Assembly: GCF_003334255.1 (NCBI RefSeq)
Contig: NZ_QOWU01000039.1
Reading direction: 5' to 3' (one strand)
Length of the DNA: 49,222 nt
DNA from: Escherichia coli
Lineage (GTDB): Bacteria > Pseudomonadota > Gammaproteobacteria > Enterobacterales > Enterobacteriaceae
Position numbers and translations under genes: made by a program. Under the pieces are notes generated by a model. The model was given only the letters and a program-made list of their open reading frames with translations, ran no database searches and had not been told where the DNA came from. Positions 1-49,222 of this stretch are shown in pieces. Numbering within the stretch: position 1 is the first letter of the stretch; each line of letters starts with the position of its first letter.

Positions 1-77
1 AATCGGTGGAGCTGCATGACAAAGTCATCGGGCATTATCTGAACATAAAACACTATCAATAAGTTGGAGTCATTACC
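1..77 (+). mobile_element. IS1 right end (partial; window starts inside the element): 3' end of insB plus right terminal inverted repeat ending ...GTTGGAGTCATTACC
   Basis: Frame 3 of bases 3-62 translates to SVELHDKVIGHYLNIKHYQ*, the InsB C-terminus; bases ~55-77 match the IS1 terminal repeat as I recall it. Confidence 0.8.
3..62 (+). CDS. insB: IS1 transposase InsB, C-terminal fragment (5' end outside window)
   Basis: Translation SVELHDKVIGHYLNIKHYQ followed by TAA at 60-62. Confidence 0.75.
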   Translation, partial: SVELHDKVIGHYLNIKHYQ

Positions 78-1005
78 CTGCGTTCTCCACTAACGATATA
101 ACGTTGGCAATCGATAAATCGGGGTTATTGGTGTATTCACAGGAGAGCGCCATTGACGAACATCCCTGTGCGAAACGAACAGATTCGGCAAACGGCATTC
201 CGTCTACCCAACACGAAGCAAGTCCCGCCATCATGGCATCGCCCGCTCCGGTAACATTAATAACATTGGTTTTGATCGGCGCAGACCAGCCACTTTCACC
301 GCTGATATCGCTGTAATAAACGCCGTCGCCGCCCATGCTCAATACCAGTCGGTTCAGGCCATGTTGATGGAACCAGGCAGCAACTTTTGCCACATCTTCA
401 CGCCCTGACAGCGCAATCCCACTCAGGGTTTCCGCTTCAAGGCGGTTTGGCTTGAGAGTGTGGATCTGATTTAGACGGTCGCGCACTTTGACACATTTCC
501 ATGCCGAAACCGGATCGACAAATACGGGTACGTTGGCGGCATTATCCAGAATCCATGCCAGTGCCTCTTCACTGATATTACAGTCCGCGACAATGACCTT
601 TGCCCTCTGAATAAATTCACCGTGCTGTGCGAGATATTCAGCTGTAATAGCGTTGCTAATATTCATGTCATTTATAGCAACCAGCATTTCACCGGTATTA
701 TCGAGTAATGATAAATAACTCGACGTATTTTCTCCCGGCACAATCAGGCATTTATCGACATAAACGCCAGATTGATTGGTTTGCGTTAGCAGCGATTGAC
801 CATAAAAATCACTGCCTACGGCGCTCAGTAGCCAGGCTTTGTTACCCAGCAACGCCAGGTTTTGTGCAATATTGCGCCCTACTCCACCAGGCGTAAATTT
901 TATTTTACCTGGATTTGAATCCGCATAATTTAATGATTCATGTGAATATCCGGCGACATCAATATTCGCCGAACCTATAATTACGACATAATCCTTTTCG
1001 CGCAT
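73..1005 (-). CDS. psuK: Pseudouridine kinase (PfkB/ribokinase family); 310 aa here versus 313 aa recalled for K-12, 3' end replaced by IS1 sequence
   Basis: ORF track 73..1005; PfkB motifs GGVGRN and TGAGDAMMAG; N-terminus MREKDYVVIIGSANID; stop codon lies inside the IS1 repeat. Confidence 0.85.
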   Translation of the reverse strand: MREKDYVVIIGSANIDVAGYSHESLNYADSNPGKIKFTPGGVGRNIAQNLALLGNKAWLLSAVGSDFYGQSLLTQTNQSGVYVDKCLIVPGENTSSYLSLLDNTGEMLVAINDMNISNAITAEYLAQHGEFIQRAKVIVADCNISEEALAWILDNAANVPVFVDPVSAWKCVKVRDRLNQIHTLKPNRLEAETLSGIALSGREDVAKVAAWFHQHGLNRLVLSMGGDGVYYSDISGESGWSAPIKTNVINVTGAGDAMMAGLASCWVDGMPFAESVRFAQGCSSMALSCEYTNNPDLSIANVISLVENAG

Positions 1006-24117: not shown

Positions 24118-24510
<393 letters not shown>

Positions 24511-27919: not shown

Positions 27920-27996
27920 CGGCACGTAGCGCAGCCTGGTAGCGCACCGTCATGGGGTGTCGGGGGTCGGAGGTTCAAATCCTCTCGTGCCGACCA
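27920..27996 (+). tRNA. proL: tRNA-Pro (anticodon GGG)
   Basis: 77 nt CGGCACG...CGUGCCGACCA; acceptor stem pairs 7 of 7; T-loop GGTTCAAATCC; anticodon loop AUGGGGU; encoded CCA. Confidence 0.95.
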
Positions 27997-44905: not shown

Positions 44906-45462
44906 TGCCGTGAAGTGCGGCACCCCGTAGGTCAGACAAGGCGGTCACGCCGCATCCGACATCCAACGCCCGAGCCGGTTGCCTGATGCGACGCTGGCGC
45001 GTCTTATCAGGCCTACACCGCTGTGAAGTGCTCCACCCCGTAGGTCGGATAAGGCGGTTACGCCGCATCCGACATCTAACGCCCAAGCCGGTTGCCTGAT
45101 GCGACGCTGGCGCGTCTTATCAGGCCTACACCGCTGTGAAGTGCTCCACCCCGTAGGTTGGATAAGGCGGTTACGCCGCATCCGACATCCAACGTCCGAG
45201 CCGGTTGCCTGATGCGACGCTGGCGCGTCTTATCAGGCCTACACCGCTGTGAAGTGCTCCACCCCGTAGGTCGGATAAGGCGGTTACGCCGCATCCGACA
45301 TCTAACGCCCAAGCCGGTTGCCTGATGCGACGCTGGCGCGTCTTATCAGGCCTACACCGCTGTGAAGTGCTCCACCCCGTAGGTTGGATAAGGCGGTTAC
45401 GCCGCATCCAACATCTAACGCCCGAGCCGGTTGCCTGATGCGACGCTGGCGCGTCTTATCAG
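44906..45462. repeat. Tandem array of about 4.9 copies of a ~113-bp BIME unit (each unit is two REP sequences in opposite orientation) between eco and mqo
   Basis: Units begin at 44906, 45021, 45134, 45247 and 45360; read directly; they generate five overlapping spurious 67-122-aa minus-strand ORFs. Confidence 0.85.
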
Positions 45463-45494
45463 CATACGCATACCATGCCGGATGTGGCGCATCA

Positions 45495-47358: not shown

Positions 47359-49002
47359 TTATGCCGTCCGGGCAACGGCATCACGCGAAGCGGCATCGCG
47401 CTCTTCGCCCGTCAGCTCGCTAAGTTGCCCATTGCGCATTTCCAGCAGGCGGTCGGCGTGGATAAAGTAATGATCATCATGACTGATAGCGAAAATAGTT
47501 TTACCCATCTCCTGCATCAGCGGCAGCAACACCTGATAAAACTCACGACGGAAGTGTGGATCCTGATCCGCCGCCCATTCATCCAGCAGGATAATATCGC
47601 GTTCTTCTGCCAGCGCCAGCAACAGCGCCACGCGTTTTTTCTGCCCTTTTGATAACTTCAGGTTAACAATACGCCCGTTGCTTAACTCAAGCTTATGAGC
47701 CATTTTCAGCTGCGCCAGCCACTTCTCAACCAGTTGCGGGTTAGCGGGTTTACCCTCCGGCCCCAGCAGTTGATCAAACAGCCAGACATCGGTAAACACT
47801 GCCGAAAACAGTTTGCGATAATCTTCCGGTTGTTCGCCGCTGACAGGTTTGCCATCCAGCAAGATTTCGCCGCTTTGTGGCTGATACAAGCCCGTCAACA
47901 ACATCGCCAGCGTCGATTTTCCGCTACCGTTGCCGCCAATCAGAAACAGCAGCTCGCCACGTTTGATGGTGAGATTAATCGGACCAACGGAAAACGCGTT
48001 ATCCTGATAAGCAAACGTCACGTTACGCAGCTCCAGCGTTTGCCAGTTGGGAAACGCCTGCGGGCGCGGAAACTCTGCTTTGAAAGGCGCGAGCGCGAAT
48101 TTGTTCAGCTTGTTAAACGCCACCTGCGCCGTCAGCAGCGTCGGCAATGCGCCAACCGCCGAAAGCAGCGGCGTACGCAGGAATAAAAGCGTCAACGAAT
48201 AGGTCGCGGCAACGTTGGTATCAGCCCAACCGAGGCTGTTCGCCATCCAGAACACCAGGCCGATTGCGCCCAGCATCATGATGTTTGACCAGTTCACGGC
48301 ACTAAGATGGAAGGTGTCTGCGCGAATAATATGGTGGCGATACTCTTGCGCATCAGGAATGTAGAGGTTGTTAAACACATACTCGGCGCGTTCCCGGTTC
48401 AGAGTCAGCTCTTTGCGCCCTTCAAGTACAGTTTGAAAATCCGTGTACAGCTTGTCTTCGGTTTCACGCAGGGTCGCCATATGTTTGTACACCCGCGCCA
48501 CCAGCACAAAACCGCCCCAGATGGTGATCGCCATCCAGATAGCCGTTACCAGCAACATTTTGCCCGACAGCATCCACAGATACGCCGCTGAACCGATAGT
48601 GAGAATGATCCCCTGCACCAGTTCCGGCAGACGCACAAAAGCAATGGTGATATTGCGCACATCGCTGGTTAACCCCGCCAGCAACGAGGCGCTACCGAGT
48701 TGTTCAATGCGCTCGACGTGAGTATCCAGAATCCGCTTGATAAATTCACTACGCAGTCGGTAAACGAAGTGATGCCCCAAAGTGGTGAGCGCCAGTTGCG
48801 ATCCGAGAGTGACTGCCATCAACAGCAGCAATAATCCCAGAAACTCCGGCAACACCAGCAGACTGGTATCCGCCGTTTCGATAAGGCGCTGATTGATAAA
48901 AGCAATTAAGCCAATGCCTAATGCCGCACTGGCGAGGCTTAGCGCCATCACACTGATAAATGGCCAGCGATACTGCCGCCAGACAAGTACAAGAAGTTCC
49001 AT
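47359..49002 (-). CDS. yojI: ABC exporter, fused permease and ATPase (microcin J25 efflux)
   Basis: 547-aa ORF; N-terminal TM domain; C-terminal Walker [10 protein letters not shown] and Walker B ILLDEW. Confidence 0.9.
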
Positions 49003-49077
49003 GCAGAAAACCCGGACAATGAATTACAGCCCGCAGTTTAAACATCTTCGCGCGCACAGCAATAATAATTCTTATTT

Positions 49078-49146
49078 TTATTCTTTTTTACCTGCCTGAC
49101 GGAATGTCAGGTTGTAGCGGCAGTCGATGGTGAGTGGATGAAACCC
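49078..49146 (-). pseudogene. alkB: 3' fragment of alkB (last 22 codons, GFHPLTIDCRYNLTFRQAGKKE*), separated from the rest of the gene by IS186
   Basis: Minus-strand translation matches the AlkB C-terminus as I recall it; an in-frame stop and unrelated sequence follow at 49147 onwards. Confidence 0.7.
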
Positions 49147-49222
49147 ATAAGCGCTAACTTAAGGGTTGTGGTATTACGCCTGATATGATTTAACGTGCCG
49201 ATGAATTACTCTCACGATAACT
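49147..49222 (+). mobile_element. IS186 left end (partial): terminal inverted repeat ATAAGCGCTAACTTAAGGGTTG plus start of the transposase gene
   Basis: Repeat recognised from memory; ATG AAT TAC TCT CAC GAT AAC at 49201 encodes MNYSHDN, the N-terminus of IS186 transposase. Confidence 0.65.
49201..49222 (+). CDS. insL: IS186 transposase, N-terminal fragment (3' end outside window)
   Basis: Encodes MNYSHDN..., matching the IS186 transposase N-terminus as recalled. Confidence 0.6.

Follow-up and report, generated by a model that had tools for sequence, protein, structure and literature searches.

The insertion sequence IS186 (= IS421) is known from three copies in Escherichia coli K-12 MG1655 (IS186A, IS186B and IS186C, annotated in NC_000913.3), and a consensus for its target was reportedly published by SaiSree et al. 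in 2001. The K-12 copies occupy the targets cGGGGATCACTCCCCg (IS186A), cGGGGAGTAATCCCCg (IS186B) and cGGGGATAATTCCCCg (IS186C), all of which, together with the yehM target of strain VG48B2 (cGGGGAAATCGCCCCg), have the form GGGG-N6-CCCC, with the inner GG-N6-CC being duplicated. IS186 is also known from the lon promoter, a hot spot of the element with the target GGGGGAAACATCCCC, where instability of the insertion through precise excision has been reported (PMC3861542). Here, we derive the IS186 target pattern from the three K-12 copies, the yehM copy and the lon promoter sequence, and compare with it a junction between IS186 and the alkB gene at the right end of a 49,222-nt stretch of E. coli DNA. 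This stretch, referred to below as the window, is the whole of the short-read draft contig QOWU01000039.1 (GCA_003334255.1). The explanation favoured below, a transposition of IS186 into alkB with predicted loss of AlkB function, is given a probability of about 0.9.

The junction and the identity of the element can be read directly from the window. The last 22 codons and the stop codon of alkB (49078-49145, minus strand; TAA at 49078-49080) are present with 100% nucleotide identity to K-12, and their minus-strand translation equals residues 195-216 of K-12 AlkB, GFHPLTIDCRYNLTFRQAGKKE (22/22). This remnant, which is without a start codon and without the first 194 codons, is separated from the downstream yojI by 75 bp, the spacing found in K-12. 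The yojI gene (47359-49002, minus strand), encoding a microcin J25 efflux ABC transporter, is intact downstream of alkB, with its start codon 144 bp from the end of IS186, and is annotated in all related loci; the yojI gene of strain SCU-104 shows a 9-nt length difference (551 aa vs 547 aa). Beyond the remnant, positions 49146-49222 (plus strand), reading CATAAGCGCTAACTTAAGGGTTGTGG..., are the first 77 nt of the left end of IS186, cut by the contig end and identical to K-12 IS186A, B and C at 77 of 77 positions, an identity that covers only 77 nt in the window. This segment includes the left copy of the 23-bp terminal inverted repeat, CATAAGCGCTAACTTAAGGGTTG (49146-49168, plus strand), which recurs inverted at the opposite end of complete copies, and codons 1-7 of the transposase gene insL (MNYSHDN; 49201-49222, plus strand), which reads away from yojI and whose related full proteins start identically. 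A 10-bp target-site duplication, GGATGAAACC (coding strand GGTTTCATCC), is present in one copy at 49136-49145 within codons 195-198; it falls at a target composed of a G run, a six-base spacer and a C run, the same geometry as in the three K-12 copies. The minus-strand translation of 49078-49221 reads ...KSYQA-stop-YHNP-stop-VSAYGFHPLTIDCRYNLTFRQAGKKE-stop, with the in-frame stop at 49159-49161 lying four codons upstream of the AlkB remnant. Of AlkB, the window contains only the fragment with Arg204 and Arg210, which is not joined with the HxD...H iron triad in a single ORF, and in relatives the part of AlkB that carries the triad stops at Pro198 and then runs into IS186. The alkB locus in the window is a disrupted gene and no functional member of its family.

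These comparisons, including the two proposed by the initial annotation (the end of the window against IS186 and 49078 onward against alkB), bear out its central claim that IS186 interrupts alkB at this place, as well as its recognition of the exact AlkB C-terminus from 49078 onward on the minus strand, of a frame stop just upstream of it, of the IS186 terminal repeat, and of the IS186 transposase N-terminus at 49201. The start that it gave for IS186, 49147, has to be moved by one base, since closed genomes, in which the second junction is visible, place the first IS186 base at the C at 49146. The same base is also wild-type in alkB, and more than 5,400 complete E. coli genomes agree with the window as far as 49146 and diverge beyond. 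Because this C fits both alkB and IS186, BLAST matches to alkB reach 49146, and the start of the element cannot be placed from the window alone.

The anatomy of the complete element is provided by the related loci. In the alkB gene of closed genomes, IS186 extends from CATAAG... to ...CTTATG over 1,339 bp, with 23-bp perfect inverted repeats and a right end reading …CAACCCTTAAGTTAGCGCTTATG. The right inverted repeat falls beyond the end of the window; each of the 10 related alkB loci has it. Three closed-genome records give the element a length of 1,338 or 1,340 bp with a frameshifted transposase annotation, most likely as a result of sequencing errors. The copies at the alkB sites are mutually identical except for one SNP. 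In nine closed genomes, GGATGAAACC flanks both ends of IS186, and the second copy of the window strain would fall beyond the contig end. Of the transposase, the window contains codons 1-7 only; the full InsL protein of the related loci has 370 aa, scores 133 bits against the NCBIfam model NF033592 (IS4 family transposase; cutoff 115) and carries PF01609 (DDE_Tnp_1).

The target in alkB, aGTGGATGAAACCCCg, also written GTGGATGAAACCCC or GT/GGATGAAACC/CC, corresponds to GTGG-ATGAAA-CCCC, a variant of GGGG-N6-CCCC in which one G is exchanged for another base while the geometry is kept. Strict GGGG-N6-CCCC has no occurrence in the 49-kb window; relaxed G.GG-N6-CCCC occurs twice when both strands are counted, so that a whole genome should offer roughly a couple of hundred such sites. 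Since the relaxed target is frequent and the alkB site is near-consensus, repeated hits in alkB are to be expected of IS186. Complete genomes contain such hits: IS186 occupies the exact alkB site in 11 of 5,426, six of them carrying it in one orientation and five in the other. The carriers show at least five flank haplotypes (MAFFT; 4.2 kb of left and 2.6 kb of right flank), and PCN061 (plus orientation) and ETEC1749 (minus orientation) show 2 and 0 flank differences, yet carry IS186 in opposite orientation. The complete genomes nearest to the window, G1/2, G6/7 and G8, are 100% identical to it over the unique sequence of the contig and have an intact alkB. The alkB site may be called a hot spot because several independent IS186 events appear to have struck one base pair in unrelated wild strains, a reading that these sequence comparisons support well. 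In a collection of 15 billion proteins, seven IS-fused AlkB alleles are represented by 42, 30, 14, 99, 16, 9 and 2 contigs (~212 in total), and many fusion-bearing draft contigs end just within IS186. The searchable literature contains no mention of IS186 and alkB together.

The window itself begins with exactly 77 nt of an IS1 end (1-77), which match an IS1A copy in strain G1/2 exactly, with no match at 78 nt, and ends with 77 nt of IS186. Because both contig ends carry exactly 77 nt of an insertion sequence, we infer that a de Bruijn graph assembler was used with k=77 and that its contigs end at the points at which unique sequence passes into a multi-copy element. The assembler would thus have become stuck at the multi-copy IS186, leaving the contig to end one k-mer (77 nt) inside it. 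As the contig stops at this point, the far side of the element is unreadable from the window.

At the opposite end of the window (1-1005), the 77 nt of the IS1 end abut the 3' end of psuK, whose product has 310 aa and ends in ...VENAG, vs 313 aa ending in ...VENAECLN. Relative to the otherwise identical G1/2, 2,634 bp (psuG, psuT and the remnant of an HTH gene) are missing between psuK and the resident IS1 beside a truncated cirA, a pattern resembling an adjacent deletion mediated by IS1; the contig also carries a 19-aa DDE_Tnp_IS1 gene fragment. The 310-aa PsuK-IS1 fusion recurs on at least six further public contigs, 20-50 kb long, such as CBCRYS010000038.1 (49,073 nt; GCA_965136505.1, L017), and since these share the same PsuK-IS1 junction, the clone of the window has been sequenced several times. 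Farther along the window, the eco-mqo intergenic region (44930-45464) contains five tandem ~84-nt repeats whose scores for naRNA4 (RF02564; 62-76 bits) exceed the Rfam gathering threshold, and the Rfam scan also identified two ordinary features, a tRNA gene (27920-27993) and, upstream of rplY, an L25 ribosomal protein leader (24179-24204).

What lies beyond IS186 in the window strain can be approached through the closed genomes. Ten of the 11 carriers were compared at the locus level, of which nine are simple insertions and the tenth is VG48B2. Among the closed genomes that carry IS186 oriented as in the window, five of six continue beyond it with the rest of alkB and then ada, as do all five of the opposite orientation. 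In VG48B2 (NZ_CP128584.1), the junction is identical to that of the window at 300 of 300 positions and its far side continues into yehM'-yehL, with a reciprocal junction, yehM'-IS186-alkB-ada, located 101 kb away and the duplications GGATGAAACC and GGAAATCGCC exchanged between the two IS186 copies (L001 4224-5562 and L016 10396-11734). This is the mark left by homologous recombination between inverted copies of IS186, one in alkB and one in yehM, and the outcome is a ~101-kb inversion; where IS186 copies are paired at sites of this kind, they can thus drive inversions of the 100-kb scale. VG48B2 is also the reason for considering that, in the window strain as well, recombination through IS186 inverted or deleted a segment, so that something other than alkB stands on the far side of the element, a possibility under which alkB would be split regardless. 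We regard such a rearrangement as unlikely in view of the preponderance of simple insertions in both orientations and of the 217-aa fusion ORF described below, which is common beside ada in draft contigs; moreover, the window, despite having only 2 differences from VG48B2 in the 4.2-kb flank, is nearer to insertion-free strains over 25 kb. A 217-aa AlkB fusion from GCA_003334255.1 itself was not found among the matches listed (nine places). A simple IS186 insertion, with the rest of alkB on the far side, is in our judgement the probable state of the window strain.

The history of the locus under a simple insertion can be outlined as follows. The host strain is an E. coli near the K-12-like commensals. 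In it, a 1,339-bp IS186 would have landed in alkB, the gene that closes the ada-alkB operon, at the near-consensus target, duplicating 10 bp. If the rest of alkB is indeed on the far side, the strain would encode AlkB residues 1-198 followed by 19 IS-encoded residues (ISANLRVEPSEECDASVPR) and would be without Leu199-Glu216. In the closed-genome relatives, the fusion ORF is directly visible: the 5' part of alkB runs through Pro198 into the element, giving AlkB(1-198)+ISANLRVEPSEECDASVPR of 217 aa in the orientation of the window and AlkB(1-198)+ISANLRVVVLRLI of 211 aa in the opposite orientation. The initial annotation had counted a loss of 22 codons; ten of the bases that it counted belong to the target-site duplication, because of which the N-terminal ORF loses 18 residues (Leu199-Glu216), not 22.

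The iron ligands His131, Asp133 and His187 are kept in AlkB 1-198, and the lost segment holds Arg204, Asn206 and Arg210. The guanidinium group of Arg204 forms a salt bridge to the C5 carboxylate of 2-oxoglutarate (PMC7467159), in agreement with the role that the initial annotation had given it, whereas its description of Arg210 as a further 2-oxoglutarate-binding residue is only approximate, Arg210 being an active-site arginine conserved in the AlkB family that forms hydrogen bonds with succinate, Asp133 and the oxo group (PMC8508711, PMC3994944). Because Arg204, Asn206 and Arg210 are lost, loss of AlkB function is very likely on the evidence of the sequence, and the dioxygenase should be inactive. 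The strain would then be defective in the oxidative repair, by direct reversal, of 1-methyladenine and 3-methylcytosine, a predicted defect that is relevant only where the isolate is used for mutagenesis or alkylation work. AlkB deficiency and MMS sensitivity of the isolate are thus predictions. A single-sequence AlphaFold2 model of AlkB had a mean pLDDT of 33.6 and was discarded, and the literature on solved structures was used in its place.

It might be supposed that the insertion is real and that AlkB(1-198) with its tail nevertheless keeps enough activity for the strain not to be phenotypically AlkB-deficient, given that all three Fe(II) ligands persist and that the fusion scores 359 bits against an AlkB model with a cutoff of 267 and is named AlkB by RefSeq without a flag as a pseudogene. 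Such residual activity is very improbable, since Arg204, the anchor of the 2-oxoglutarate C5 carboxylate, and Arg210 are replaced by unrelated residues. The literature yielded no activity data for AlkB(1-198) fusions. In SCU-104 (NZ_CP053284.1; L013 5520-6155), the alkB gene disrupted by IS186 has acquired an internal stop in its 5' part as well, which fits the decay of an already dead gene and likewise speaks against retained function. Loss of function therefore remains the preferred reading for AlkB. A polar effect on ada is not expected, because gene order and knowledge of the operon place alkB last in ada-alkB. A consensus scan of 48900-49222 found no promoter-like site on the minus strand and no terminator-like site.

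Database annotation tends to conceal the disruption. The wild-type protein scores 380 bits against the NCBIfam AlkB equivalog, and RefSeq/PGAP gives the fusions the name 'DNA oxidative demethylase AlkB' and no pseudogene flag in nine of the ten closed genomes compared (217-aa and 211-aa fusions in L002, L004-L007, L012, L014, L015 and L016) because they still pass the family model. Only the 69-nt alkB remnant carries an incomplete flag in RefSeq, where the same 69 nt are labelled 'AlkB, incomplete, missing N-terminus' in the 11 closed genomes. As the fusions are unflagged, gene-presence surveys will overcount functional alkB.

Chance and artefact were both rejected as explanations of the junction, given that an identical junction is present in closed genomes; on sequence comparison, none of the matches at the junction can be due to chance. 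That the strain has a functional alkB and the junction represents a chimeric join at a repeat or a minority of the culture is scarcely credible, even though the window is a short-read draft contig ending in a repeat, since the junction recurs base for base in six closed genomes and its mirror image in five more, a canonical 10-bp duplication is present at a near-consensus IS186 target, and a mixed population would, from the usual behaviour of de Bruijn graph assemblers, be expected to produce a branch at the junction and a contig stopping there, not one that extends a full k-mer into the element.

The insertion in alkB is an ordinary gene disruption in which a well-known element has used a target of the kind that it prefers, and it leaves the current understanding of IS186 or AlkB unchanged. 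What it adds is modest, namely a new natural and recurrent IS186 site in alkB, a disruption that database annotation conceals, and one case of a large inversion driven by the IS186 copies. The alkB site joins the lon promoter as a natural site of recurrent IS186 insertion and helps to define the target rules, in that insertion can take place with one of the four Gs of the G4 run replaced. While the hot spot at codons 195-198 is itself well supported, we consider it doubtful, though worth stating, that it might act as a recurrent and possibly reversible switch, in which precise excision between the 10-bp duplications, as reported for IS186 in the lon promoter, would restore the gene, so that lineages could lose and regain alkylation repair, perhaps under selection (e.g., for higher mutability or altered yojI expression).

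Three known systems provide the closest comparison. The alkB site resembles the IS186 site in the lon promoter in that the same element, a target made of a G run, a spacer and a C run, and independent recurrent insertions that inactivate a gene are found in both; it differs in that the lon insertions lie in a promoter, whereas those in alkB lie in the coding region near its 3' end, at a target one base off the G4 run. With IS186A, IS186B and IS186C of K-12 MG1655, the element shares every base of its visible end in the window and, in the related alkB loci, the length of 1,339 bp, the 23-bp repeats and the 10-bp GG-N6-CC duplication; unlike those copies, which are intergenic or hok-associated and lie at perfect GGGG-N6-CCCC targets, the alkB copy interrupts a gene, at a chromosomal site new for the element. 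Finally, as in the laboratory alkB null mutants, which are classically MMS-sensitive, loss of the Fe(II)/2-oxoglutarate dioxygenase acting on 1-methyladenine and 3-methylcytosine is expected, with the upstream ada unaffected; in contrast to these mutants, alkB::IS186 is a natural allele of wild isolates, leaves a 198-residue N-terminal part joined to IS-encoded residues, and has a predicted phenotype.
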